Positions 1-45,925 of a DNA stretch of 64,000 bases are shown piece after piece. Numbering within the stretch: position 1 is the first letter of the stretch; each line of letters opens with the position of its first letter. Under the pieces are notes generated by a model. The model searched no databases, was not told where the DNA came from, and saw nothing but the letters and a program-made list of their open reading frames with translations. A program made the translations under genes and the position numbers. Origin of the DNA: an uncultured Candidatus Saccharibacteria bacterium (GTDB lineage Bacteria; Patescibacteriota; Minisyncoccia; Phycocordibacterales; UBA918); NCBI GenBank assembly GCA_964608605.1, contig CAZSOS010000001.1:117888-181887 (forward strand). Reading direction: 5' to 3'.

Positions 1-1643
1 ACGAATGTCCTTCTTGCAAGGGGGCGAGATTGCGACCGGAGGCTTTGCGCGTGTACTTGGGGGGCGATCCTAAAAGCGGGAAGAACATCGTCGACTTCAC
101 CGACATGACGGTGAATGGGGCCGCTGAATTCATCGCCTCTTTGAAGCTGACCAAGAAGCAGCAGGATATCGCCTGGCCGGCCCTGCGCGAGATCATCGAG
201 CGGCTGGAATTCATGCAGAACGTGGGTATCGAATATCTGACATTGAATCGCCGCGCCAACACGCTCTCCGGCGGCGAGGCGCAGCGCATCCGCTTGGCTT
301 CCCAGCTCGGAAGCGGCTTGGTCGGGGCGCTTTACGTGCTCGACGAACCGACCATCGGCCTCCATCAACGCGATAACGATAAGTTGATCGCCACTTTGAC
401 GAGTCTTCGCGACCTCGGCAACACCATCATCGTGGTGGAGCATGACGAGGACACCATCTACGCGGCTGATTATCTGGTGGATATCGGTCCGGGCGCGGGC
501 GTTCATGGCGGCAACGTGGTGGTGGCAGATTACCTGGATAAACTCTTGTCGGCCAAGAAGAACGAATCTGGCTCGATCACTCTTGATTATCTTCGGGGCG
601 AGAGGAAGATCGAAGTGCCTAAGCGGAGACAAAGCGAAAAAGGTTCCATCAAGATCCGCGGCGGCAAGGCCTTCAACATCAGGAATCTGAACGTGGACAT
701 CCCGCTCGGGCGCTTGATCGCCGTCACCGGCGTGTCGGGAAGCGGCAAGTCGTCCTTCATGTACGAGATCCTCTACAAGAATCTCCAGGCGCGGCTGGAA
801 CGCCGCTATCGCACCGCCAAGACCTACAACGTGGCTTCGATCGATGGCACCGAGTATCTGGGCCGGTCGGTGTTGATCGACCAGTCGCCGATCGGCCGCA
901 CGCCGCGCTCCAACCCCGCCACGTATACCGGCGCTTTCACACATATCCGCGATATGTTCGCTCATACTAATGAAGCGCGGGCGCGCGGTTGGAAGCCGGG
1001 CCGTTTCTCCTTCAACGTCAAAGGCGGGCGCTGTGAGGCCTGCCAGGGTAACGGAGAGATCGCGGTGGAGATGCACTTCTTGCCGACGGTCTTCGTCACC
1101 TGCGACGTCTGCGACGGCAAACGCTTTACCAAGGAAACTCTGGAGGTAACTTACCGTAATAAGAATATCGATGAGGTCTTGCACATGACCATCGAGGAGG
1201 CGCACGTGTTCTTCAATGACGTGCCGGCCATCGCCGAGCGCCTAAAGAGCTTGCTCGACGTGGGCTTGGGTTATTTGGAGCTGGGTCAAAGCGCCACCAC
1301 GCTCTCCGGCGGCGAGGCGCAGCGCGTGAAGATCGCTTCCGAGTTGTATCGCCCGCACACGCAGAAAACCATCTATCTGCTGGATGAGCCGACCATCGGC
1401 CTCCACTACGAAGATGTGAAGAAGCTGATCGAAATTCTGCAGGAATTGGTCAATCGCGGCAACACGGTGATGGTGATCGAGCACAATCTCGACCTGGTGA
1501 AGTCGGCCGACCATATCCTCGATATCGGTCCGGAAGGCGGCGAGGGTGGCGGCAACCTGATCGCCAAGGGCACTCCCGAGGAAGTGGCTAAGAACGAAAA
1601 GTCACACACTGGCAGGTATCTGAAAAAAGCGTTGAAGCGATAG
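1..1643 (+). CDS. uvrA: Excinuclease ABC subunit A (UvrA), C-terminal portion; 5' end lies outside window
   Basis: ORF 30..1643 open to window start; two ABC signature motifs LSGGEAQR, Walker B LYVLDEPT/IYLLDEPT, zinc-finger CEACQGNG typical of UvrA. Confidence 0.9.
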   Translation, partial: ECPSCKGARLRPEALRVYLGGDPKSGKNIVDFTDMTVNGAAEFIASLKLTKKQQDIAWPALREIIERLEFMQNVGIEYLTLNRRANTLSGGEAQRIRLASQLGSGLVGALYVLDEPTIGLHQRDNDKLIATLTSLRDLGNTIIVVEHDEDTIYAADYLVDIGPGAGVHGGNVVVADYLDKLLSAKKNESGSITLDYLRGERKIEVPKRRQSEKGSIKIRGGKAFNIRNLNVDIPLGRLIAVTGVSGSGKSSFMYEILYKNLQARLERRYRTAKTYNVASIDGTEYLGRSVLIDQSPIGRTPRSNPATYTGAFTHIRDMFAHTNEARARGWKPGRFSFNVKGGRCEACQGNGEIAVEMHFLPTVFVTCDVCDGKRFTKETLEVTYRNKNIDEVLHMTIEEAHVFFNDVPAIAERLKSLLDVGLGYLELGQSATTLSGGEAQRVKIASELYRPHTQKTIYLLDEPTIGLHYEDVKKLIEILQELVNRGNTVMVIEHNLDLVKSADHILDIGPEGGEGGGNLIAKGTPEEVAKNEKSHTGRYLKKALKR

Positions 1644-1891: not shown

Positions 1892-1937
1892 ACCAGTGAG
1901 AGTGGCCGCGCGAGCATACGCGCGGCCAAGCTATTTT

Positions 1938-3293
1938 ATGACCAAAGAAGCCTTACAAAAAAAGAAGCTGCCTGACGCACCCGGGGTGTACTTTTTTCTG
2001 GGTGCCCGGAAAGAGATACTCTATATCGGCAAGGCCACTTCACTACGCAATCGGGTGCGCAGCTACTTCGCGCCGGACATCAAGGACAAACGCTCGGCCC
2101 TGATCGAAAAGATGGTGTCGGAGGCTAAGAGTGTAGAGTCGACCGTGACCGACTCGGTCTTGGAGGCGCTCATCCTCGAAACCAACCTCATTCGCACCCA
2201 CAAGCCAAGGTACAACACCATCTCCAAGGACGATAAGAGCTACAACCACCTCATCATCACCGATGAGGAGTGGCCGCGGGTTTTGGTGGTGCGCGGCAAA
2301 GACCTTGATGGTTATACCAGTCTGACTAGTATAAGAAATAATGTAAATACTAGTCAGACTGGTATAAGCTATCACTTCGGTCCGTTTCCAAACGGCCAGC
2401 TATTTCGCGAGGCGCTGAAGATCGTGCGTCGCCTGTTCCAGTTTTATGATACCAAAGAGCCGGTGGGCACGGAAAAGTCGAAACTAGTACGCGGCAAGAT
2501 CGACTTCAATCGGCAGATCGGCCTTTACCCCCACACCAACTTTTCCGTAGCGCCGGAGGCGCGTCAGTCTTCAAAGAAGACTGACAACGGAAAAGTTGGT
2601 GTGGGGGTGTACCTGAGCGAAGTCACGCAGGCGAAGAAGGACTATCAACGTACCATCCGCTATATCCGACTTTTCTTTGAAGGCAAGAAAGGACAGATCA
2701 TCAAAGAGTTAGAGAAAGAGATGAACGCCTTGGCCAAGGAAGAAAGGTTCGAGGAGGCTAACGTCATCAAGAAGAAGGTGTTCGCGTTGCAGCACATTCA
2801 GGACATCGCCCTTATCAAGGATGAGAGCCGCGTCTATCGCGACGAGAATTCTGTACGCATCGAGGCCTACGACGTGGCGCATCTTTATGGCAGCGACATG
2901 GTCGGCGTGATGACCGTGGTCGAAGGCGGGGAAATGAAGCGCTCTGAATACCGCAAGTTCAAGATAGAGAGCGTTACCGGATCGAACGACCCGGCGGCTT
3001 TGCGCGAGGTGTTGGAGCGCCGCCTGCATCACGTGGAGTGGCCCTTTCCACAGATCATCGCGGTCGATGGTTCGACGGCGCAGAAGAACGTAGCCGAACG
3101 GGTGCTTAGAAAGCGCGGACTGATGATACCGGTGGTGGCGGTCGTCAAAGACGACCGCCACCGTCCCGTCCGCGTCCTCGGCCCGGCCTCGCTTCTCAAA
3201 AAACACCACGACGCTATTCTCTTGGCGAACGCCGAGGCCCACCGATTCTCTATCGGTTTCCACCGTGAGCGACGCGGGCGGAGGTTAGGGTAG
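1938..3293 (+). CDS. uvrC: Excinuclease ABC subunit C (UvrC), GIY-YIG plus endonuclease domain, lacking C-terminal HhH; carries two in-frame palindromic insertions
   Basis: PGVYFF...YIGKATSLRNRVRSYF GIY-YIG motif, FGPFPNG, C-terminal EAHRFSIGFHRERR; ATG 1938 preferred over GTG 1896 by alignment to UvrC N-termini. Confidence 0.85.
   Translation: MTKEALQKKKLPDAPGVYFFLGARKEILYIGKATSLRNRVRSYFAPDIKDKRSALIEKMVSEAKSVESTVTDSVLEALILETNLIRTHKPRYNTISKDDKSYNHLIITDEEWPRVLVVRGKDLDGYTSLTSIRNNVNTSQTGISYHFGPFPNGQLFREALKIVRRLFQFYDTKEPVGTEKSKLVRGKIDFNRQIGLYPHTNFSVAPEARQSSKKTDNGKVGVGVYLSEVTQAKKDYQRTIRYIRLFFEGKKGQIIKELEKEMNALAKEERFEEANVIKKKVFALQHIQDIALIKDESRVYRDENSVRIEAYDVAHLYGSDMVGVMTVVEGGEMKRSEYRKFKIESVTGSNDPAALREVLERRLHHVEWPFPQIIAVDGSTAQKNVAERVLRKRGLMIPVVAVVKDDRHRPVRVLGPASLLKKHHDAILLANAEAHRFSIGFHRERRGRRLG
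2312..2368. repeat. Palindromic element type 1, copy A, in-frame within uvrC
   Basis: TTATACCAGTCTGACTAGTAT ... ATACTAGTCAGACTGGTATAA; ~20-bp perfect inverted repeat around AT-rich 14-nt loop; near-identical copy at 13028-13078. Confidence 0.85.
2526..2609. repeat. Palindromic element type 2, nested inverted repeats, in-frame within uvrC
   Basis: ACCCCCACACCAACTTTTCCGT (2527-2548) perfectly complementary to ACGGAAAAGTTGGTGTGGGGGT (2587-2608); inner palindrome GTCAGTCTTCaaaGAAGACTGAC (2563-2585). Confidence 0.8.
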
Positions 3294-14570: not shown

Positions 14571-17500
14571 ATGCACCAAAGACGCGCCGCGTTTATCGGC
14601 GGTCTCAGTCTTTTTCTGTTAGTGTTGGCGATCTGCTTCTGCGTTGGCTTTGTTTTTTCAGCGCGTCAGACACCTGAAGAGAACGCGGTGAGTTCCGGTG
14701 TAGAAAAGGCAGAGCCGGTCTCGTTCTCTCCTTGGCGGACTCTCTTCTGCGGTCTGCGCTCGCTTGTCCTTTGGCCTTGTGCTGAACCGACTTCTCTCCC
14801 AGAACCTTCTATGCCCGCTCCAACCACTTCCATTGAGACGCGGCCGGTTCCGGCAGTCGATCTAGATGTCGCTACCACCTCTGCTTCAACCACGTCTTCT
14901 TCACCCTCCACCCAATACATAACTAACGAAACCATAGTCCGCCCCCTCGAACGCGAAATCATCCGCGAAATCACCATCCGCGACCAGGCCGTCGACACTT
15001 CCCGTTTCGTCACCCGTACTGAATATGATAGGCAAGTAGACGCGCTTCTGCGGTCCATTGAGAGTAAAGGTGGTAGTACCACTATAGTGGATCAAGGTGG
15101 CGGTGGAGGAGGTCCTGAAACCGACCCTGTCTTCATCGCTTCCGCCGCTTTTACCATTACTGGTGGTGATCTTTCTGATTGGAATCAGGCTTTTGGATGG
15201 GGTGATCACACCCAGGCTGGTTATCTAACTTCGTTCACCGAAAATGACCCACTTTTCTCCTCGTCCACCGCCGCTTCCATCACCAATACGGATGTCTCAA
15301 ATTGGAACCAATCTTTTGCTTCTTCAAGCGTGCTATCTATATCAGTGTCTGGTCTCATGGCGTCGTCGAGCGCTTGGGACCAGGCTTTTGGGTGGGGCGA
15401 CCACTCCCAAGCCGGATACCTCACTTCGTTCACCGAACTCGACCCCATCTTCAGCACCTCACCGGCCTTCGGCATCAGCGGCACCAATATCAGCAATTGG
15501 AATAGTACGTACACCACCGTCACCGCCTCCTCTTCACAGTGGGGAAGCGCGTACACCTTGGCCACTCTCTTGAACTCCGCTTCCTCCACCTGGAACCAAG
15601 CCTACTCCTGGGGCGACCACTCCACGGAGAACTACATCCAACAGAACACCGACGCCACTCTCGACAACGCCACCACCACCAACCTCACCACCAACACACT
15701 CACGCTCTCTGGAGCGCTCAAGACTGGTCTCTCAGACGGTTGCGTTGAAGTAGCTGGCGGTGTCCTCACTTCTCTGGGAGTGGCATGTGGCACTGGCGGC
15801 GGGGGACTGACAAACCTCAATGGCCTCACCTCTTCCTCGCAATCTTTCGCCACTTCCACTTCCGGCGGTCTTTCTCTTAACATCACCTCATCGGGAGGGG
15901 TACATACGTTTTCTGTGGGACTGCAGGCTGGTCGGACCCTGCCGCTTACCGCTAGTACCACTGAGTGGGCCAACATCAGGAACCTGGTCAACGCCTCCTC
16001 TTCACAATGGGGAAGCGCGTACACCTTGGCCAATCTCCTCAACAGCGCCTCCTCCACCTGGAACGCCGCCCATGCCTCCACCACCGCCCTCACGCCCTCG
16101 TACCTCCGCGGACTCTTCAATGCCGGTACCGGCCTCTCGTACGGCACCACCACTGGCACCTTCACCAACACCGGCGTCCTGTCGATCGGAGGGCTGAGCG
16201 GGAGCGTGGCGACGAGTTCGTTGGGGCTTGGTAACAATAGCTTCATCGGATTGTCCGACACCCCAGGTTCATATAACGCCGATCGCGTCTTGTTCACCAA
16301 TGCTGCCGGCAACGCTTTGACCGACTCCGCCAACTTCACCTATAACGGCAGCTCCGAGTTGCTGACGATCAGTGGCAACCTCGCCACCGGCTACGGCATC
16401 TCTTTGGGGTCTTCCGGAGGCATATATGCCAGTGAAGATATCCTGACCGCGGGCAACGGCATCAATATCATCGGTACCGAACACGCGGTTTTAAGGACCG
16501 GTAACGCTTACGTCTCTCTCACTGATGATGGAATCGATACTTTTGCCAATATTGCTGGTGATGGTGTCCAGCTCTACTCCCATTTTGATGACATCACCCT
16601 TCATTCCACTAATAACATCATTCTCACCGGCATCGGCAACGTCGGTATCGGCACCACCACGCCATCGCACAAGCTGACGGTGGCAGGAAACACTCTTATT
16701 GCTGGGAATGCCACTACTACGGGCAACCTAGTGGTGCAAGGGGCGGACATCGTGCTGGGAAACACTGGCATGGGTTACATAAGTAGTGCTTCAGGTGGAG
16801 TCTTGATCCTGGGGGGCGCCTCTAACGGTACCGGTGAAAATCTACGTTTTGATTTTGATATCAGTACTGGTCTTGATTTAGATGTGGTAACAGTAAGTTC
16901 TGGCACCGGTGCTAATCATTTGTTATTCCTCATGGGCCTGGAGACGATGGGAAATCTTAAGGTCGGCGGCAATATCACCGATGCTACCTGGCAGGGAAAT
17001 GATATCGACATCTCCGACTACACCAACCTCGGCGTCACCGCCACTGGTCTTTCTCTTTCTGGAGATAACATCGCTCTGACTGCTGGCTATTCCATACCAC
17101 TCACCTCTTCCACCTCAGAATGGACCACAGCGTATTCCTGGGGCGACCACGCCACGCAAGGCTACTTGACCGGCCTCGGCACTTCCACCTTCAACGGCAA
17201 CATTTCGATGGCCGGACATATCATTCCGGCGGCCGACATCACCTACGATCTCGGTTCACCCACTAGCATGTGGCGGGACGTCTACATCGGTCCGGGTTCT
17301 CTCTATATCAATGGCAAGAAGGTGTTGGAGGACGTGTCGGATACCATTACGTTGCGTACCGATCACAACCAGAATCTCGCGGTGCAGACCAGCGGTATCG
17401 GCAGTATTCATGTCAATGCTTCATCCACCGGCGGCATCACCATGGAGTCCATCTCAGGTAATATCAACATCACCTCCGCCTCTGGCAACCTCAACATCGG

Positions 17501-20500
17501 CACCACCGGCAGCGGTCAGCTCAACCTCGGCACCATTAACCAAGGCGTCTGGCACGGCACCGACGTCGACATCTCCGACTACACCAACCTCACCGTCTCT
17601 GCCACCGGCCTCACTTTGAACAACGACGCCATAGAGCTTGCTTCCGGCTATGCTATTCCACTCACCGCCAGCACCACTGAATGGATGAGCGCTCGCACTG
17701 ACGTGCTCGCGCTCACGGCCTCCTCCACCCTTTGGGATTCTTTCTACAACACCCCTTCATCCCGCCTCACCGCCGGCACCGGTCTCTACTGGAGCGGCAA
17801 TACTCTAAACGCTTCGTCGTCGGCTGACATCAACTACTGGACGTTGTCGGGAGGCAATGTTTATAGGGCTTCCGGCAATGTGGGTATCGGGACTTCCACT
17901 CCCGCTGCTAAGCTGGATGTTCAAGGTAGCTGGTTGCGTCTCCTTAATCCAAGTGGGGGATCGAGCATAACCTCGCAAAGCGTAGGAGGGGAGGCTATTT
18001 TCGCGGCGCGCAATTCGGCCAACGCTTGGACCTCCGGTGTAAACACCAGCGGACAGTATTTTATCTACGACGAGACCAATGCCAGCATACCTTTCCGTAT
18101 CTATCCTAGTTCTGCGAACAGTGTCATGTCAATCAATGGTAGTAATGTTGGTATCGGCACTACGACTCCGAACTCTAAGCTTCACCTAGCCGATGGATAC
18201 ATGCTTGTAACGCGCTCAGAGACCGCTAGTCAACCTAACTTTTATCAAGCCTTGAACTCCAGCGGCAGCGGCTTCGGTCTTAGATATACCGAGGATGCTA
18301 TCGGAAACATCCCGGCAGATGCCTGGCAGTTCAGATTATCCGGAACCAACGTCAGCCCGCTCATCTTCTCAACTTTCGACTCGACTCCGATCCTGACCAT
18401 GGCGACTTCCGGCAATATTGGCATTGGTACTACGACGCCTAACGCGGCGTTGGACATCAGTTCCACAGCTACGGGGGCTGTCACGGCAGCCTTCTTTAGA
18501 TCGAACCCAGGTGGTGCTGGGGCGGCGAATCAAAATACGATTGTGCTCGATAACCTGCAGGGTTCCGCTAACTTCAAAAATTCCATCCGACTCGCCAGTA
18601 ACGGGGCTTTGAAGTGGTCATTCGGAAATGATTACTACGGCGCTGGAGAGCAGAATTTCTTCATACATGACGCGGTATCCAACGCGGCGCGTCTCTTGAT
18701 AGATCCGGACGGCAACGTCGGTATCGGGACCACCAGTCCAAACAGTATCTTGAATATCAACACCGGCCTCTCCGGTTTTATGGGCCTTCCCGCACACGGC
18801 AGTGTAGGCTTCGGTAATTTCAGTTCTGGTAATACGGCACCTAGCATGATGGCCCGCTCGGATAATTCGACGGCCCTCCGTCTAATTAGCTTAGCAAGCA
18901 ATAGCAACACTGACGCCGACATGAACTTCGATGTCCGTGAGAACGACAACACCGACTTCGCCACCTTGACCAGTCAAGCGTTCAGCTTCAGCCGTTTTGG
19001 CAATAGCCTACTCACTATCCTACGCAGCGGCAACGTTGGCATCGGTACCTCGACGCCCAGTGCGAAGCTTAGTGTACAAGGCACCATTCGGGCAGAGAGT
19101 GTCTCATCCATTAGTACAGGGTCTGGCGTTGAAATCAACTACAACACCGGCACCGGACTCGGTAAGATCCAAGCCTATGATCGAGACGCAAGTACTTTTA
19201 AGGACTTGTGGCTAGATGGCTCTACGCTCACTCTCGCTACTGGCGGTGCTTCTCGCGTGACCATCCTTCCTTCTTCAGGAAATGTCGGTATAGGAACCAC
19301 TACTCCTCAAGCTACACTTCATCTCGGCACTTACGGCGCCACCCTCCGCCTCAATAGCCCAATAACTGGTTCTGGCATATACGGATACAATGACGCTAGT
19401 GGCGGTTTAGCTTACTCCTTCACGCGTCAATCCAACGACCTTCATATCACCGGCGCGACCGGCATCGGGTTCCAGTCTAACGCAGGTTCAGGCATAAATA
19501 CTGCTAGCACCTCGATGTATATCTCTTCCGCCGGCAACGTGGGCATCGGCACTACAACCCCAGCGAGCAGATTAAGCGTGTTTTCAACTGACAGCGTTAT
19601 CGCGGAATTCACCGCTTCGTCATCGGCAGCTACTCGAATGAAGCTAAATACCACAGGTTCCAATAAAAACGTGGGACTTAGTCTGGCAATAGACGGCATT
19701 ACTCGATGGACCAACGCCGCCTATCTCCCGAACGGGACTAACTATGACTACACGATATGGAATGACGCACTTAATAGTCCAGCCCTCCTCATTGACGGTG
19801 ACACGAACAACATCGGTATCGGCACCCTTAGTCCTGCATACAAACTCCATCTGGCCTCCGGCACGACGACGTTGGCCATGGTACCGTGGCAATCGGATGA
19901 TCTGGTAATACAAGGAGGTCTGGCAGAACAGAACGGCATCTCCATAGTCAACGGCTCCAATAAATACCTCACCTTCGTTGATGACAACATCGGCATCGGC
20001 CAGATCGGCTATTACTGGAACGGCAACATGAACTTCCTCACCGACGGCACGGAGCGAATGGTTATTAATGCCACCGGCAACGTCGGCATCGGGACCACAT
20101 CACCACTTACGAAACTCGACGTGAAGGGCTCGATCTTGATCGATCAAGGATCGAACGGACGTCTCATATTCAATAATTATACTTCTTTGTCAGATCATGG
20201 ACCATATATCGGCTACTCTACAGGTAACAATTCCATGGACATCGTGTCCGGAATGAACCCCAATGCCAATGGCGTTGGCACGGGTGGTATCCGCTTCGGT
20301 CGAGCCAGCGGTTCGTCGTGGGCCACGACCATGGTCATCGACGGCTCCGGATTGGTCGGTATAGGTACCTCAACACCTACACACAGTCTCACCGTAGGCG
20401 CGGTCAATTCGACCGTTGATCGGATTATCCGGGTCGTATCGCAAAATAACGTTGGCCTTATCCTTGAAGCCGATACGGATAATCTTACCGAGACACATAA

Positions 20501-21470
20501 CCCGTACGTGAAGATGTCGCAAGACGGTGGGGCGGTGGCTAGTATCATGGGTATGACCGGTGGTGCCAACATCGATCCTGAGGGTAATACCTTCACCGGC
20601 GGACACGATAATGCCCTGGTCTTGATCAACCAGTATGCCGGTTCAATACAGTTGGGTACTAACGGAGCTCCCCGGCTCTCTATCGTTTCTTCGGGTAATG
20701 TCGGCATCGGCGCCTTGTCTCCCTCCGCCCAACTCCACACCACCGGCACCGTCCGTTTCGCCAATTTCGGCGCCGGCACCCTCCAGACCGACGCCTCCGG
20801 CAACCTCTCAGTCTCCTCAGACACCCGTCTTAAAGACCTCGAAGGTACCTTCGACCGCGGACTCGAAGCCATCTTAGGCATAGAACCCATCATGTACCGC
20901 TGGAACGCCGCTTCCGGCTACGACCGTTCTACTCTATACGCCGGCTTCTCCGCCCAGAACGTGGAAGACTTCATCCCCGAAGCCGTGGGTACCAACCCTG
21001 ACGGTTTCCTCTCGTTGTCTGATAGACCGCTCCTGGCGGCGGTGATCAACGCGGTGAAGGAGATATACGGCCAATTGACGACTTTGTCCGATAAGATCGC
21101 TGGCTTTGCCGACAGCTTTATGTCCGCCAGCATCACCGCCACCGACAGGATCTGCGTGGGAGACACATGCGTTACCGAAGGTGAGTTGAAGGCCGTGTTG
21201 GATATGGTCGGTAGCAATGGTGGAGGCTCTAACGATGGAAATGGCAGCTGGGGCGGATCTTCCGGCGGCGGCGACACCACGACCGGTACTTCGACCGCCT
21301 CCACCACGCCGCCGGTTACCTCGACCTCGACACCGCCCGCCACTCCCGTATTAGGCTGTATGGACCCTCTGGCTTCGAACTTTGCTCCCGCGGCCACGGA
21401 GGATGATGGTTCGTGCGTATTTCCGCCCGCGCCGCCGGACGAGTCGGCCACCACCACTCCGGCGGAGTGA
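14571..21470 (+). CDS. giant secreted/surface repeat protein (2299 aa): N-terminal TM/signal, Pro/Thr-rich linker, tandem repeat modules, ~12 GNVGIGTTTP-type repeats, C-terminal phage tailspike-like intramolecular chaperone (peptidase S74-like) domain and Cys motif tail
   Basis: uninterrupted ORF; internal repeats visible at protein level; SSDTRLKDLEG...IMYRWNAASGYDRSTLYAGFSAQNVEDFIPEAV motif near C-terminus. Confidence 0.85.
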   Translation: MHQRRAAFIGGLSLFLLVLAICFCVGFVFSARQTPEENAVSSGVEKAEPVSFSPWRTLFCGLRSLVLWPCAEPTSLPEPSMPAPTTSIETRPVPAVDLDVATTSASTTSSSPSTQYITNETIVRPLEREIIREITIRDQAVDTSRFVTRTEYDRQVDALLRSIESKGGSTTIVDQGGGGGGPETDPVFIASAAFTITGGDLSDWNQAFGWGDHTQAGYLTSFTENDPLFSSSTAASITNTDVSNWNQSFASSSVLSISVSGLMASSSAWDQAFGWGDHSQAGYLTSFTELDPIFSTSPAFGISGTNISNWNSTYTTVTASSSQWGSAYTLATLLNSASSTWNQAYSWGDHSTENYIQQNTDATLDNATTTNLTTNTLTLSGALKTGLSDGCVEVAGGVLTSLGVACGTGGGGLTNLNGLTSSSQSFATSTSGGLSLNITSSGGVHTFSVGLQAGRTLPLTASTTEWANIRNLVNASSSQWGSAYTLANLLNSASSTWNAAHASTTALTPSYLRGLFNAGTGLSYGTTTGTFTNTGVLSIGGLSGSVATSSLGLGNNSFIGLSDTPGSYNADRVLFTNAAGNALTDSANFTYNGSSELLTISGNLATGYGISLGSSGGIYASEDILTAGNGINIIGTEHAVLRTGNAYVSLTDDGIDTFANIAGDGVQLYSHFDDITLHSTNNIILTGIGNVGIGTTTPSHKLTVAGNTLIAGNATTTGNLVVQGADIVLGNTGMGYISSASGGVLILGGASNGTGENLRFDFDISTGLDLDVVTVSSGTGANHLLFLMGLETMGNLKVGGNITDATWQGNDIDISDYTNLGVTATGLSLSGDNIALTAGYSIPLTSSTSEWTTAYSWGDHATQGYLTGLGTSTFNGNISMAGHIIPAADITYDLGSPTSMWRDVYIGPGSLYINGKKVLEDVSDTITLRTDHNQNLAVQTSGIGSIHVNASSTGGITMESISGNINITSASGNLNIGTTGSGQLNLGTINQGVWHGTDVDISDYTNLTVSATGLTLNNDAIELASGYAIPLTASTTEWMSARTDVLALTASSTLWDSFYNTPSSRLTAGTGLYWSGNTLNASSSADINYWTLSGGNVYRASGNVGIGTSTPAAKLDVQGSWLRLLNPSGGSSITSQSVGGEAIFAARNSANAWTSGVNTSGQYFIYDETNASIPFRIYPSSANSVMSINGSNVGIGTTTPNSKLHLADGYMLVTRSETASQPNFYQALNSSGSGFGLRYTEDAIGNIPADAWQFRLSGTNVSPLIFSTFDSTPILTMATSGNIGIGTTTPNAALDISSTATGAVTAAFFRSNPGGAGAANQNTIVLDNLQGSANFKNSIRLASNGALKWSFGNDYYGAGEQNFFIHDAVSNAARLLIDPDGNVGIGTTSPNSILNINTGLSGFMGLPAHGSVGFGNFSSGNTAPSMMARSDNSTALRLISLASNSNTDADMNFDVRENDNTDFATLTSQAFSFSRFGNSLLTILRSGNVGIGTSTPSAKLSVQGTIRAESVSSISTGSGVEINYNTGTGLGKIQAYDRDASTFKDLWLDGSTLTLATGGASRVTILPSSGNVGIGTTTPQATLHLGTYGATLRLNSPITGSGIYGYNDASGGLAYSFTRQSNDLHITGATGIGFQSNAGSGINTASTSMYISSAGNVGIGTTTPASRLSVFSTDSVIAEFTASSSAATRMKLNTTGSNKNVGLSLAIDGITRWTNAAYLPNGTNYDYTIWNDALNSPALLIDGDTNNIGIGTLSPAYKLHLASGTTTLAMVPWQSDDLVIQGGLAEQNGISIVNGSNKYLTFVDDNIGIGQIGYYWNGNMNFLTDGTERMVINATGNVGIGTTSPLTKLDVKGSILIDQGSNGRLIFNNYTSLSDHGPYIGYSTGNNSMDIVSGMNPNANGVGTGGIRFGRASGSSWATTMVIDGSGLVGIGTSTPTHSLTVGAVNSTVDRIIRVVSQNNVGLILEADTDNLTETHNPYVKMSQDGGAVASIMGMTGGANIDPEGNTFTGGHDNALVLINQYAGSIQLGTNGAPRLSIVSSGNVGIGALSPSAQLHTTGTVRFANFGAGTLQTDASGNLSVSSDTRLKDLEGTFDRGLEAILGIEPIMYRWNAASGYDRSTLYAGFSAQNVEDFIPEAVGTNPDGFLSLSDRPLLAAVINAVKEIYGQLTTLSDKIAGFADSFMSASITATDRICVGDTCVTEGELKAVLDMVGSNGGGSNDGNGSWGGSSGGGDTTTGTSTASTTPPVTSTSTPPATPVLGCMDPLASNFAPAATEDDGSCVFPPAPPDESATTTPAE

Positions 21471-41544: not shown

Positions 41545-42123
41545 ATGTTTGTTATGGCAGAAGAAAGCAACATGTCTGAAGAGAACAAGAAAACTATCAT
41601 CGCCTTCGTCGCCGGTCTGGTGGTCGGCGGTCTATTGGTCTTCGTCTTTGGCGGCACCGCGGCCGTGGTGTCCGACGAAGAGCGCGACACTGACGCGGAA
41701 GTATCGACGGAGATATCGTCCGAGCTAGAAGCGACGAACGAGGAAGAAGCTACCACCTCGATCGTGGTCCGGGAACCGGAAGCAGAGACGACTCGTCCGA
41801 CCGTCGAGGTCGGGGAGGGCCGCCTGTCGGTCGGCGATCAGCCAGCTGGATCGGTCGTGGCGTTCACTGACGCGGAGTTTCCGACCAACGAAGGCTGGGT
41901 GGCCGTCAGGGACTATCGCGACGGGCAATTGGCTGGCATCCTCGGCGCCGCCCGCTGGAACAAGTCGACCTGGCTGCTTCCCACGGAGGTGAAGCTGCTT
42001 CGGGCCACTGTCCCGGGAAATACATACGCTATCGTCTTCTACACCGATAACGGCGACCGGACCTTCAATCTGGCCACCGACGTGCAGATGTCGAGCGTCA
42101 TGGAGACCTTCAGGGCGGAGTAA
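41545..42123 (+). CDS. hypothetical membrane-anchored protein with acidic linker
   Basis: single N-terminal TM, Glu/Thr-rich segment, C-terminal beta-rich domain; terminator at 42126-42152. Confidence 0.5.
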   Translation: MFVMAEESNMSEENKKTIIAFVAGLVVGGLLVFVFGGTAAVVSDEERDTDAEVSTEISSELEATNEEEATTSIVVREPEAETTRPTVEVGEGRLSVGDQPAGSVVAFTDAEFPTNEGWVAVRDYRDGQLAGILGAARWNKSTWLLPTEVKLLRATVPGNTYAIVFYTDNGDRTFNLATDVQMSSVMETFRAE

Positions 42124-42172
42124 AGGAAAGCGCGGGCCGGCCCGCGCTTTTTCGAATGCTATAATCAGACAC

Positions 42173-42970
42173 ATGGAATTCGCCAAGAGATACAATCCCG
42201 ACCGTTCGCCCGATTGGAACTACGGCGGCCAGAAGTGGCGGCTGTCGCGTTCCAAGATCGATCTGTTCATCGAGTGTCCGCGCTGCTTCTATATCGACAA
42301 CAAGCTGGGGACCAAGCGTCCGGGCATGCCGTCTTTCAACCTCAACATCGCCGTCGACGAACTCTTCAAGAAGGAGTTCGACGTGCATCGGAAGAACGGC
42401 ACGCCGCATCCGATCATGACCAGGTACGGCGTCCAGGCCGTGCCGTTCTCACACCCTAAGATGGACGAGTGGCGCGATCCTTTCGCGGGCGTGTCGCATC
42501 TCCATGAAGCCACCGGGCTCGTGGTCTGCGGCGGCGTCGACGACCTCTGGCAGGCGGCCAACGGGAAGATCATCGTGGTCGACTACAAAGCCACTTCCAA
42601 GGCCGAGCGCATCGAGAAGCTCGGCGACTCGCCCTGGGAAAAGCAGTACCAGCGCCAACTCGGAGTCTATCGTTGGCTGCTGGAACACAACGGCTTCGAG
42701 GTCGAGGACCTGGGTTATCTGGTCTATGCCAACGCCTCAAAAGAAGAGGACGCCTTCGACGACAAGCTGACGTTCGAGACCACTTTGGTGGAATGTCCCA
42801 CCATGACCGACTGGATAGAGCCCACCCTGGCCAAGATCAAGTCCTGCCTCGAGGGTGACGCGATCCCGCCTTCGGGAGACGGCTGCGAATATTGTCCTTA
42901 TCGAGAGGCCTCGGGAAAGAAGCTCATGTCTTTGCATCTCCAGGCTAAGAAGTTAAAATCAAAAGGTTGA
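42173..42970 (+). CDS. Cas4-like/RecB-family PD-(D/E)XK nuclease with 4 Cys
   Basis: SRSKIDLFIECPRCFY N-terminal motif, GGVDDLW, IVVDYK, QYQRQLGVYRWLL (QxxxY), C-terminal CEYCPY. Confidence 0.7.
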   Translation: MEFAKRYNPDRSPDWNYGGQKWRLSRSKIDLFIECPRCFYIDNKLGTKRPGMPSFNLNIAVDELFKKEFDVHRKNGTPHPIMTRYGVQAVPFSHPKMDEWRDPFAGVSHLHEATGLVVCGGVDDLWQAANGKIIVVDYKATSKAERIEKLGDSPWEKQYQRQLGVYRWLLEHNGFEVEDLGYLVYANASKEEDAFDDKLTFETTLVECPTMTDWIEPTLAKIKSCLEGDAIPPSGDGCEYCPYREASGKKLMSLHLQAKKLKSKG

Positions 42971-42993
42971 TCAATATCACTTAAGTTCGCCAC

Positions 42994-43230
42994 ATGTCTA
43001 TTTCATCAATACAAGCCAAGATCGAAGCGGTGGAAAAGGATCTAAATAAGGCCGAAACCGCCGTTACCAGCAAACAGCAGGAAGTATCCGGCCTGAACAG
43101 TGAGATCACCGCTTTGGAGCGCTCCGTACATGACGCTCAGGGAAAGCTATTGGACCTGAAAGAGGAGTTGCGGAAGGCCGAGGCCGCGGCGGCGGACGAA
43201 AAAGCCCGACGAGAAGCCCGGACCAGTTAA
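42994..43230 (+). CDS. hypothetical coiled-coil protein (78 aa)
   Basis: heptad-rich ORF. Confidence 0.4.
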   Translation: MSISSIQAKIEAVEKDLNKAETAVTSKQQEVSGLNSEITALERSVHDAQGKLLDLKEELRKAEAAAADEKARREARTS

Positions 43231-43241
43231 CCTAGACTTTC

Positions 43242-43838
43242 GTGTACTCCTACCGCCTCGAGCAAGCCATCCGCGCCGCGGCCGTCCTGCACCAGGACCA
43301 GCGTCGGCGCGGCCGGGTACCGCTACCTTACGTGACCCACTTGGCGGCCGTGGCCTGGCTGGTCGGGGATTACACCAAGAACGAGAACGCCATCATCGGC
43401 GCTTGGCTTCACGATACGCTGGAGGACACCGAGTATTCGGCCGAGGAGCTCGAGGAAGATTTCGGCGAGGAAGTCAGGAAGATCGTCGAAGCGGTGACCG
43501 AGCCGAAGGAGAAGAACGGCAAGAAATTGAAGTGGGAGGACCGCAAAGCGGCCTATCTGGAGCGATTGAAGGTCGGACCTGAAGCCGCGCTCATCATCGC
43601 CGCCGCGGACAAGATCCACAACATGCGCAGCATCGTCGAGGAATATTACGACAACCATCAGGGCTTCATCAAGGATTTTTCAGGTTCGTTGGATGAAAGG
43701 GCCATGCGGTATCAGGAGCTTTCCAATCTGCTGAACCGCAAACTGTCTAATGATATAATCGCCGAATTCAATCACGTTTATTCCGAATATAAGAATTTTC
43801 TAGCCCATGTCAAAAGATCAGTCGAAGCCAAAAAATAA
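43242..43838 (+). CDS. small HD-domain hydrolase, RelA/SpoT-type (putative (p)ppGpp hydrolase)
   Basis: H..H ... AWLHDTLEDT HD motif. Confidence 0.65.
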   Translation: MYSYRLEQAIRAAAVLHQDQRRRGRVPLPYVTHLAAVAWLVGDYTKNENAIIGAWLHDTLEDTEYSAEELEEDFGEEVRKIVEAVTEPKEKNGKKLKWEDRKAAYLERLKVGPEAALIIAAADKIHNMRSIVEEYYDNHQGFIKDFSGSLDERAMRYQELSNLLNRKLSNDIIAEFNHVYSEYKNFLAHVKRSVEAKK

Positions 43839-45639
43839 GTCTTTTGACTATCGAGCCGTGAATACCATTCCCAAACTAGGAAAGTACAAGCTAGAATGGG
43901 ATCTCAAAGGAATCTACTACAAAAGCGCTAAAGATCCGCGCATCGAGTCCGACTTAAAGAGCGCGGAAGCGGCTTATGCTGATTTTGCGAAAAAATGGTC
44001 AGATAAGGATCTGGCAGACGGAACGATCCTCTTAAAGGCTTTGACCGAATACGAAAGCTTGGCCGGAATGCCAGCTGTCACTCGTCCTGGTCGGTACTTC
44101 TCGTTTCGTAAGTGCTTAAACGTCAATGACGCGGAAGCTGATCGGGCACTGGCTTTAATGTCTAAGCGTTTGCGTCAGGCTAGTGATCAAATACTATTCT
44201 TCACTTTGAAACTGGGCAAACTGCCTACGCCTGAGCAAAAGCGTTTGCTTAAAGAAGATGCTTTAAAGCACTTCAGGTATTTCTTAGAAAGGATCTTCGA
44301 AGGCGCTAAGCATGATCTTTCCGAACCAGAGGAGCGGATCATCCGCTTGAAAGCCCGCCAATCTTCGGGCATGTGGCACGAGGCCGTGGAGAAGATCCTG
44401 AGTAATCGCAAGATAATTTTTAAAGGAAAGGAACTGCACTTGCCTGAAGCTATCGAAACGATCGACTTACTATCGGTAAAAGATAGGGTTAAGCTTTGGG
44501 ATTTGATCATTAAAGAGTTGAAACAGATCAGTGAAGTGGCTGAGCATGAGATGAACGCCATCATCAGCGACGCGCGGGGCGAAGATGAACTTCGCGGTTT
44601 CAAGAAGCCTTATAGCGCCACCGCTCTATCTTATGAACACGACGAGAAAAGTATCGAGAACTTGGTCGCGACGGTCTCCAAAGAAGGCTTTGAGCTCAGT
44701 CAGAAATTCTACAAGCTTAAAGCCAAGTACCACGGAGTTAAAAGCCTGCATTACACCGAGAAGTATCGCTCCATCGGCCAGGAACTCGATATCAGTTTCG
44801 AGGAAGCCATGGAGATTTGTCGTGATGTCTTTTACGGACTTAAGGTCGAGTACGGTGAGATCTTTGACAAGATGTTGAGCAATGGCCAGATCGACGTCTT
44901 TCCAAAGAAAGGAAAGCAAGGAGGGGCTTTTATGTCTGATCAGACCGGACATCCGGTCCACGTATTCTTGAATCACGTGCCTAATTTCAAATCGCTAGAG
45001 ACGTTGGCGCACGAGATGGGCCATGCCATCCATGCCAGTCGCAGCGCCCAGAACTCGCCTTTGTACGATGGACATTCTATCGTTACCGCCGAAACGGCCA
45101 GCACGCTGTTCGAAAATCTAGTGTTCGAGGCTATTTACGCGCAAGTGAACGAAAAGGACAAACTTACTCTGCTTCATGATCGGATCACCCGCGATATCGC
45201 CACTATCCAAAGACAGATCGCCTGCTTCAACTGTGAACTGGAATATCACAGAACTATTACTGAAAGAGGTGCCATGGCCAATGACGAGTTTCGGGAAATA
45301 ATGGTGAAGCATTTAAAGTCGTATCTAGGTCCTGGTGTTGATGTTTCCAGCGACGATGGTTACACCTATGTGTATTGGTCACATTTGCGTTATGGATTTT
45401 ACGTTTACTCCTATACTTTCGGTCTTTTGATGAGCACGCTGATGAGTCAAAGCTATAAAACAGATAAGAGCTATATCAAGCAGTTGGATAAGTTCCTATC
45501 TGCTGGCTCTTCCGACACCGTGGTGAATATCTTTAAGTCGATAGGCATAGACACCACCAAGGAGAACACCTTCAAGGAAGCGTTGAAGAATCAAGCCGCG
45601 GACATCGCCACCTTCGAGAAATTGATCAGTCGCCGCTAG
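43807..45639 (+). CDS. pepF: oligoendopeptidase F (M3B metallopeptidase)
   Basis: HEMGHAIH zinc motif, full-length M3B architecture. Confidence 0.85.
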   Translation: MSKDQSKPKNKSFDYRAVNTIPKLGKYKLEWDLKGIYYKSAKDPRIESDLKSAEAAYADFAKKWSDKDLADGTILLKALTEYESLAGMPAVTRPGRYFSFRKCLNVNDAEADRALALMSKRLRQASDQILFFTLKLGKLPTPEQKRLLKEDALKHFRYFLERIFEGAKHDLSEPEERIIRLKARQSSGMWHEAVEKILSNRKIIFKGKELHLPEAIETIDLLSVKDRVKLWDLIIKELKQISEVAEHEMNAIISDARGEDELRGFKKPYSATALSYEHDEKSIENLVATVSKEGFELSQKFYKLKAKYHGVKSLHYTEKYRSIGQELDISFEEAMEICRDVFYGLKVEYGEIFDKMLSNGQIDVFPKKGKQGGAFMSDQTGHPVHVFLNHVPNFKSLETLAHEMGHAIHASRSAQNSPLYDGHSIVTAETASTLFENLVFEAIYAQVNEKDKLTLLHDRITRDIATIQRQIACFNCELEYHRTITERGAMANDEFREIMVKHLKSYLGPGVDVSSDDGYTYVYWSHLRYGFYVYSYTFGLLMSTLMSQSYKTDKSYIKQLDKFLSAGSSDTVVNIFKSIGIDTTKENTFKEALKNQAADIATFEKLISRR

Positions 45640-45646
45640 TTGGCAA

Positions 45647-45925
45647 ATGATCGCCGTTCTGGTTAGATATGGTTTGGGAACAAAAAAGGAGGCGTCAGTG
45701 ACCTACGCGGTGGACTTCGAGAGGTACTACGACAAAGGGGACTTTCGTTACTGGCTGCGCCGCACGCGGGACGGCACGGTGGCGGTCAGGCAGCCGTTTT
45801 ACAGCCCCAAACTGTTGGACCACTCCTCCGGCGAGACATCGGTCGATCCCCGGGACCTTCCGGATGACCTGAAGGCTCCCTTCAACATCCTCTGCGCCGG
45901 GGGCATTCCCGCTGTCGACGCTTAG
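45647..45925 (+). CDS. hypothetical small protein (92 aa)
   Basis: ORF only; followed by two terminator-like hairpins 45935-45995. Confidence 0.35.
   Translation: MIAVLVRYGLGTKKEASVTYAVDFERYYDKGDFRYWLRRTRDGTVAVRQPFYSPKLLDHSSGETSVDPRDLPDDLKAPFNILCAGGIPAVDA

Follow-up and report, generated by a model that had tools for sequence, protein, structure and literature searches.

A stand-alone Cas4-like protein of Patescibacteria is a conserved candidate nuclease for genome maintenance

A 64-kb stretch of DNA from an uncultured Candidatus Saccharibacteria bacterium (contig CAZSOS010000001.1, positions 117,888 to 181,887; hereafter the window, to which positions refer unless another locus is named) encodes a stand-alone protein related to Cas4 and RecB nucleases, which we call Cas4L. 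Its motifs and a structural model indicate that Cas4L is probably a metal-dependent PD-(D/E)XK nuclease of the Cas4/AddB/Exo5/Dna2/MGME1 structural class. We favor, at a probability of roughly 0.55, the reading that it is a vertically inherited core nuclease that processes DNA ends for genome maintenance in Patescibacteria. A maintenance role fits better than one in defense because the gene is core, syntenic and constrained, because repair genes lie beside it in most relatives, and because the predicted fold is one of end-processing enzymes.

Results

Motifs, cysteines and predicted fold of Cas4L

The Cas4/RecB-nuclease signature reported in an initial annotation of this DNA is readable in the protein. 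It comprises S25-R-S27 and E34-C35-P-R-C38-F-Y near the N-terminus, the predicted catalytic residues D123/D124, D137-Y-K139 (within VVDYK, residues 135-139) and Q162-x3-Y166, and C238-E-Y-C241 toward the C-terminus. The active site is of the RecB type (hD...DYK, QxxxY) and is intact. Both profiles that the initial annotation had named for a check score above gathering, with PF12705 far ahead: it matches at 5e-13 with 50 bits (cutoff 22), which together with the hD...DYK motif places Cas4L among the RecB/AddB-type PF12705 proteins, and PF01930 matches at 2e-5 with 25.1 bits (gathering score 22.7) over the C-terminal half only. Four PADLOC Cas4 models also match, at about 1e-10, and the TIGR00372 cas4 equivalog scores 36.6 bits, under its curated cutoff of 65. 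A sequence search of the PDB with the single protein returned no match, and one with a profile of its family had a sole match, the SSO0001 Cas4 (E = 1e-3). Cas4L consists of a single domain without a UvrD-like helicase fusion and so does not have the makeup of AddAB, AdnAB or RecBCD.

The family around Cas4L is large, with at least 7,929 matching proteins in a database clustered at 90% identity. A library clustered at 50% identity contains 1,731 representatives with E ≤ 1e-3, of which 246 reach E ≤ 1e-30. Neither Pfam nor NCBIfam offers a curated model dedicated to the family. In an alignment of 80 sequences, reaching down to 32% identity, the residues C35, C38, K66, R73, W100, G120, D123, D124, K139, Y166, P232, C238 and C241 are invariant, and conservation of D137 and Q162 is 90% or higher. 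The four cysteines, D123/D124, K139 and Y166 are invariant also in about 130 full-length representatives of the 50%-identity clusters.

Characterized Cas4, AddB and related nucleases have one N-terminal cysteine and a CxxCx5C motif. Common to all full-length representatives of the Cas4L family is instead a CxxC...CxxC pair, two of the cysteines lying at the N-terminal helices and the other two where the C-terminal helix begins. In a profile alignment to SSO0001, the CxxC of Cas4 corresponds to C238/C241 and the third C-terminal cysteine is missing from the Cas4L family. Because of this correspondence and this absence, the metal site of Cas4L would be topologically equivalent to that of Cas4, with its ligands redistributed 2+2 instead of 1+3. 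The Fe-S character first assigned to the protein is something we infer from these cysteines, and a 2+2 set would be compatible with either Fe-S or Zn. The description of Cas4L as a stand-alone Cas4-like PD-(D/E)XK nuclease was upheld, with regard both to superfamily membership and to the four invariant cysteines.

The AlphaFold2 model of Cas4L is confident (pLDDT 94.6, pTM 0.90). Its best Foldseek match is the Cas4 part of Cas4-Cas1 (7mi4, E 2e-6), and further top matches are the AdnA/AdnB nuclease domains, the Pcal_0546 Cas4, Exo5, SSO0001, MGME1, lambda exonuclease and AddB. On account of these matches, we place the modeled fold in a class of DNA-end-processing, mostly 5'-3', exonucleases; as modeled, it is no closer specifically to CRISPR Cas4 than to repair enzymes.

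Conservation of Cas4L and its neighborhood

We compared 80 loci from distinct species, picked by the similarity of their Cas4L, and matched their open reading frames (ORFs) to the genes of the window; some of these loci are incomplete, so that the neighbor counts given here are minima. The nearest relatives, both as Cas4L proteins and as loci, belong to Candidatus Kaiserbacteria, Paceibacterota and other Patescibacteria, and we read the window as part of a Kaiserbacteria-like chromosome of the Paceibacteria. The genes follow a conserved block order: mnmA, ATP-cone/Mrr-like nuclease, (membrane protein), Cas4L, (Ogt), (coiled coil), (Ung), HD_4, pepF, alaS. Upstream of Cas4L, mnmA and the ATP-cone nuclease were found in 68/80 loci, the latter being the most constant Cas4L neighbor in Paceibacteria, and the membrane protein in 54/80 (median identity about 43%). 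Downstream, the HD_4 gene, which in the window encodes a protein here called HD198, occurs in 44/80 loci, pepF in 33/80 and alaS in 44/80. Between Cas4L and the HD gene, 48 of the 80 loci encode an Ogt-type O6-alkylguanine alkyltransferase domain of 85 aa (MGMT; PF01035 1.9e-27, active-site PCHRV), and 22 of the 80 a uracil-DNA glycosylase (UDG).

The block takes its most complete form in two marine Patescibacteria (L090 and L091), where a tight, partly overlapping operon runs mnmA, x, ATP-cone/Mrr, Cas4L, MGMT, UDG, HD_4, pepF, x, alaS; its part from the ATP-cone/Mrr nuclease to pepF lies at 4146-8955 in L090 and at 2070-6879 in L091. In the clade L042-L062, the ATP-cone nuclease gene ends in a stop codon that adjoins or overlaps the start of Cas4L. 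The more distant Paceibacteria and the Saccharimonadia lack the HD link. Five Saccharimonadia loci (L075-L078 and L080) place the Cas4L ortholog between a HAD_2 hydrolase gene (and msrA) and serS, and within 6 kb of it we found no ATP-cone nuclease, MGMT, UDG or HD gene; the identity that Cas4L retains between Paceibacteria and Saccharimonadia is 48-52%.

Cas4L had the highest median identity to its window counterpart (65.8%), followed by alaS (62.2%), mnmA and HD198 (55.5% each), the ATP-cone nuclease (54.7%), pepF (50.0%) and the membrane protein (42.9%). mnmA was never more conserved than Cas4L, and alaS was more conserved in only 5/42 loci. Of all genes in the block, Cas4L is conserved best, though the comparison is biased by the Cas4L-based choice of loci, and it is shown to be under very strong purifying selection.

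These comparisons revise the initial annotation, which had seen in Cas4L, the coiled-coil gene, the HD gene and the ATP-cone nuclease a compact nuclease/nucleotide-signaling neighborhood and had suggested a check of co-occurrence in related genomes. Co-conservation stands for the ATP-cone nuclease (68/80) and for the HD gene where it is present (44/80), but the HD link is missing in distant clades. The idea of a compact, defense-like module is not supported: the conserved block also has mnmA, pepF and alaS, and DNA-repair genes (ogt, UDG) intervene in most relatives. The outcome once named as speaking against such a module, a DNA-repair-type family with housekeeping neighbors across relatives, largely describes what we found.

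Promoter and transcription unit

An intrinsic terminator hairpin begins after the stop codon of the upstream 192-aa gene, closing that transcription unit, and an extended -10 element with no Shine-Dalgarno sequence after it stands just before the Cas4L start codon (Table 1). Equivalent terminator hairpins lie upstream of Cas4L in many relatives. The layout of terminator, TGnTAtACT or TATAAT, a gap of 6-9 nt and ATG recurs in the roughly 60 nt upstream of the Cas4L ortholog in more than 40 divergent related loci (Paceibacteria, L001-L061 and others), lending comparative support to the leaderless promoter that had been proposed from the window. Such an arrangement implies that the Cas4L mRNA is leaderless, and Cas4L would be transcribed from this promoter of its own; the same transcript would probably take in the coiled-coil gene, the RelH-type hydrolase gene and pepF. 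The conserved layout also suggests that leaderless translation is routine in the Paceibacteria lineage.

Table 1. Features of the window discussed in the text, in order of position.
Feature	Coordinates	Strand	Remarks
uvrC	1896-3293	+	GIY-YIG and UvrC RNase H domain
ATP-cone + Mrr/AF1548-like PD-(D/E)XK nuclease, 276 aa	40682..41512	+	two genes upstream of Cas4L
192-aa protein with N-terminal hydrophobic segment (membrane-anchored)	41545..42123	+	weak DUF7282 match only
Intrinsic terminator hairpin (GC core 42130-42147) and U-run	42125..42152	+	12 bp, -19.6 kcal/mol, z = -2.6 (RNA fold)
Extended -10 element TGcTATAAT	42157..42165	+	7 nt before Cas4L ATG, no Shine-Dalgarno
Cas4L, stand-alone Cas4/RecB-like PD-(D/E)XK nuclease (predicted), 265 aa, ATG start	42173..42970	+	ORF call, motifs, profiles
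78-aa coiled-coil protein	42994..43230	+	generic coiled-coil matches only
HD198, RelH-type small alarmone hydrolase (HD_4; predicted), 198 aa, GTG start	43242..43838	+	profiles, PDB matches
pepF, M3 oligoendopeptidase F	43807..45639	+	PF01432 9e-28, PF08439
92-aa ORF between pepF and alaS	45647-45925	+	no Pfam match

Neighboring genes and the wider window

The ORF coordinates, the 78-aa coiled coil, the 198-aa HD protein, its overlap with pepF and the upstream ATP-cone nuclease were all found as first annotated. The ATP-cone nuclease matches PF03477 (26.6 bits), PF22357 (26 bits; AF1548-like C-terminal domain) and, weakly, PF04471 (Mrr_cat), as well as PDB entry 1y88 (AF1548) at 2.4e-27, and has a restriction-endonuclease fold. 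A homolog search with this protein returned only close Paceibacteria relatives.

HD198 matches HD_4 at 1e-14 (55 bits versus 27.2) and the spoT_relA hydrolase region at 1.8e-20, and its best solved relatives are the RelH structures 7qoc (1e-23) and 7qoe (7e-23). Its metal and catalytic residues are all readable (H33, H57-D58, E61-D62, D123, N127), and it lacks a synthetase domain. A single HD_4 domain with these residues would make HD198 a RelH small alarmone hydrolase, which sharpens the earlier call of a RelA/SpoT-type HD hydrolase. No (p)ppGpp synthetase was seen in the 64-kb window. The HD198 3' end overlaps the pepF ORF by 32 nt as called, and an HD/pepF overlap is present in relatives as well.

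In about 28 loci, the position of the 78-aa gene is occupied by an E/K/Q/R-rich ORF of 82-144 aa; the coiled-coil ORFs counted between Cas4L and the HD gene range from 82 to 212 aa. The orthologs are only 13-24% identical among genomes in which Cas4L is more than 80% identical. The gene keeps its position and a heptad-like composition, and may encode a fast-evolving structural or adaptor protein. Farther downstream, weak positional orthologs of the 92-aa ORF, with 37-42% identity, are present in the four closest loci, and L090 and L091 have a 77-aa ORF at the same position.

The window as a whole is a core chromosomal, housekeeping region. Its genes, in a pooled Pfam scan, include uvrC, ddl, ATP synthase, dnaK/dnaJ/grpE, leuS, alaS, mnmA, yceG and rpoA, and an Rfam scan found one tRNA only. 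Neither ogt nor ung is present in the 64 kb; both have been lost or relocated here. No CRISPR-like repeats were detected in the window by TRF, and a pooled PADLOC search of its 46 ORFs matched no cas gene besides the Cas4 models, in keeping with the original statement that neither a CRISPR array nor cas genes lie nearby. The defense-system prediction recommended along with that statement gave a similar picture: PADLOC-DB yielded no complete known defense system near Cas4L, only the single Cas4 models, and the HD and ATP-cone proteins had no PADLOC match.

A PADLOC mad3 match (1e-81) to the ORF at 30-1643 (+) was rejected as defense, as this ORF encodes a UvrA-like ABC ATPase directly before uvrC; it is cut by the window start and almost certainly represents UvrA's C-terminal half. 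Another ORF, at 14571-21470 (+), encodes 2299 aa with a single Pfam match, Peptidase_S74 (endosialidase intramolecular chaperone), close to the C-terminus. The product resembles a giant fiber or surface protein, and such proteins are frequent in Candidate Phyla Radiation (CPR) genomes.

The Cas4L family outside the CPR

Two members of the family, P0137 and P0271, are fusions of Cas4L to HD_4 and are 57% identical to each other over their full length. Both are found in restriction-modification (RM) settings: P0137 (L081, 6001-7248) is the last gene of an operon of SNF2, methyltransferase, ResIII and DUF4357 genes (type III-like RM), and P0271 (L086, 7001-8380) is the last gene after a type I hsdM-S-R set. 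A run of SNF2, methyltransferase, ResIII, DUF4357 and Cas4L genes lies on an integrative element in L087-89 (P0301 at L087, 6001-6750). A Chlamydiales member without the HD domain fills the same slot in an operon of the L081 type, on an element that encodes both an integrase and a primase. Because two members are fused to HD_4, a functional link between nuclease and HD domain is possible, and the pairing of the two that had been noted in the window has a counterpart in these rare fusion proteins. The HD dyad of P0137 reads YD, so its hydrolase may be inactive.

Other architectures join Cas4L to Nudix (P0128), to GYF and TIR (P0195) or to DUF2779 (P0255). A further protein, P0125 (749 aa), has two Cas4L domains in tandem and a long low-complexity N-terminus rich in K, R and S. 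This N-terminus resembles a nuclear-localization region, and P0125 may be of eukaryotic or giant-virus origin. In L092, a CPR member also has a Nudix gene directly upstream; since there is no Nudix gene in the 80 loci or in the window, we rate the Nudix link as sporadic. The RM operons and the fusions show that the Cas4L family can serve in defense contexts.

A tblastn search of Cas4L against 50,697 phage genomes gave no match, and scans of viral contigs with the window Cas4L and with the phage-borne P0123 found no relatives. These searches being empty, the case for viral carriage consists solely of one family member on a phage-like contig (L085) and of PHROG 31195 (phrog_31195), which matches Cas4L over its full length.

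Discussion

If Cas4L is a genome-maintenance nuclease, its four cysteines would bind an Fe-S cluster (or Zn) and thereby staple the N- and C-termini around the active site. The enzyme would thread a free DNA end and degrade or trim single-stranded DNA, 5' flaps or broken ends, serving to resect breaks or, after base excision, to clear strands that are damaged or displaced. It probably acts alongside the ATP-cone/Mrr-like endonuclease, which would be co-transcribed with it in some lineages. The alarmone hydrolase is a syntenic companion of Cas4L, and a functional coupling of the two is unproven.

Several points weigh against a role in maintenance. The Cas4L subfamily is without any biochemically characterized member. 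The adjacency to ogt and ung may be historical and not functional, since the order of the whole block is conserved in Paceibacteria, and the 64-kb window has neither gene. The conservation comparison is somewhat biased because loci were chosen by Cas4L similarity. Members outside the CPR end RM operons, sit on mobile elements and are sometimes fused to HD_4, TIR or Nudix, all of which points to defense. Finally, an AddA-like helicase-nuclease is present in at least one cultivated saccharibacterium, which means that Cas4L does not have to stand in for AddAB; in the S. epibionticum transposon-sequencing tables (PMC10633639), PF12705 occurs only in the AddA-like helicase-nuclease, and no stand-alone ortholog is identifiable.

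The main rival to genome maintenance is a fixed, restriction-type defense module, which we regard as improbable, although it fares best among the alternatives. The ATP-cone/Mrr-like endonuclease would cut foreign DNA under the control of nucleotide levels. With similarly limited likelihood, Cas4L would then degrade the ends, as RecBCD does after restriction, and the HD_4 hydrolase would handle the nucleotide signal. Such a module would account for the position of non-CPR members as the last gene of RM operons (L081 and L087-89, and L086 with its type I hsdMSR), for the two diverged Cas4L-HD_4 fusions and the GYF-TIR-Cas4L fusion, and for an ATP-cone nuclease whose fold is that of restriction endonucleases and whose translation is coupled to that of Cas4L in one clade. 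The Cas4L of the window, however, is core, syntenic and constrained beyond alaS, the opposite of typical defense genes. Its neighbors are housekeeping and repair genes, the PADLOC search of the window found no methyltransferase or other defense match nearby, and a terminator splits the ATP-cone nuclease unit from Cas4L.

Another reading treats the whole CxxC...CxxC family as a DNA-degrading effector coupled to a nucleotide signal, so that a restriction-like, nucleotide-sensing nuclease system would have become fixed in the core genome of an entire bacterial class, the Paceibacteria. This reading draws on the recurrent links to HD_4 and Nudix, as fusions and as neighbors, and on the ATP-cone-gated Mrr-like endonuclease, and we consider it quite unlikely.

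Equally doubtful, in our estimate, is a role in nucleotide salvage. CPR bacteria are unable to make nucleotides, and Cas4L together with the ATP-cone-regulated nuclease would degrade imported or surplus DNA, the products of which HD_4, Nudix and HAD enzymes would process. Three phosphohydrolase folds are indeed linked to Cas4L: HD_4, as a neighbor in 44/80 loci and fused in P0137 and P0271; Nudix, in P0128 and L092; and HAD, with a hydrolase gene upstream of Cas4L in 5/5 Saccharimonadia loci. The adjacent nuclease, moreover, carries the ATP-cone, a nucleotide-sensing domain. Yet these links are either rare or confined to certain clades, the HAD gene does not always lie next to Cas4L, and the 80 loci contain no Nudix gene. 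The signature of HD198 is that of a RelA/SpoT alarmone hydrolase and not of a 5'-nucleotidase, and the ogt/ung context suits repair better.

The Nudix and HD associations would also suit an enzyme similar to DXO/Rai1 that processes RNA 5' ends or acts in RNA decay and is coupled to pyrophosphohydrolases, an explanation to which we give very little weight. Least probable of all, with next to no chance of being right, is an orphan adaptation Cas4 that is a leftover of, or serves, a CRISPR-Cas system elsewhere in the genome: PF01930 and the PADLOC Cas4 models do match, but TIGR00372 stays below its cutoff, the cysteine pattern differs, no array or cas gene lies in the 64 kb and the synteny is of the housekeeping type in all 80 relatives.

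Significance and comparison with known systems

A large subfamily that has no curated model is now delimited, with a distinctive 2+2 cysteine signature. Its conservation in Paceibacteria exceeds that of an aminoacyl-tRNA synthetase, and it occurs in two settings that contrast: in the CPR, an operon of the repair type that includes ogt and ung, and elsewhere, RM operons with HD_4 fusions. If the repair reading is true, Cas4L would be a core genome-maintenance enzyme in a very large share of bacterial diversity. If it is not, what has been found is ordinary, a housekeeping nuclease and no new defense system.

Several known systems resemble Cas4L in part. CRISPR-associated Cas4 proteins share its PD-(D/E)XK motifs and QxxxY. 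Unlike these proteins (SSO0001, 4ic1; Pcal_0546, 4r5q; Cas4-Cas1, 7mi4; type I-C, 8d3l), Cas4L is without cas1/cas2 or an array, is only 14-24% identical to the CRISPR Cas4 structures, scores below the TIGR00372 cutoff and has its fourth ligand moved from the C-terminus to the N-terminal CxxC. Compared with the nuclease domains of AddB/AdnAB, Dna2, Exo5, MGME1 and RecE/lambda exonuclease, Cas4L is a stand-alone protein of 265 aa without a helicase domain. MMSYN1_0389, a DUF2779/Cas4-like nuclease of the minimal Mycoplasma genome, is quasi-essential in that genome, which has no CRISPR (PMC13621843). It is likewise a Cas4-related nuclease outside CRISPR, and P0255 joins DUF2779 to a Cas4L domain, but MMSYN1_0389 belongs to another family, is fused to a DEDD nuclease and has only two cysteines. 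The neighboring HD198 resembles RelH (C. glutamicum, 7qoc/7qod; L. levettii, 7qoe; PMC9293644) in its single HD_4 domain, its length of about 200 aa and its full set of hydrolase motifs.

Closest in kind are the solo-Cas4 genes, which are common, vertically inherited and over-represented in CPR/DPANN genomes without CRISPR, and for which repair or defense has been proposed (PMC5704561); a Solo-Cas4 of Methanosarcina mazei has been studied biochemically (PMC12501428). With its Cas4-superfamily homology, non-CRISPR context and mainly vertical inheritance, Cas4L is a solo-Cas4, and since such genes were reported from the CPR in 2017 (Hudaiberdiev et al., PMC5704561), the Cas4L of the window belongs to a known kind. 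The literature that we searched has no description of the 2+2 cysteine signature, the conservation above alaS, the ogt/ung operon context or the RM-linked HD_4 fusions; these new points are incremental, not categorical. Like the Solo-Cas4 of CPR/DPANN and M. mazei, Cas4L stands alone outside CRISPR, is inherited vertically in small-genome organisms, and has four cysteines and intact PD-(D/E)XK motifs. Unlike them, it is best matched by PF12705 (RecB/AddB, 'DYK') and not by PF01930, and it carries CxxC...CxxC where they have C...CxxCx5C.

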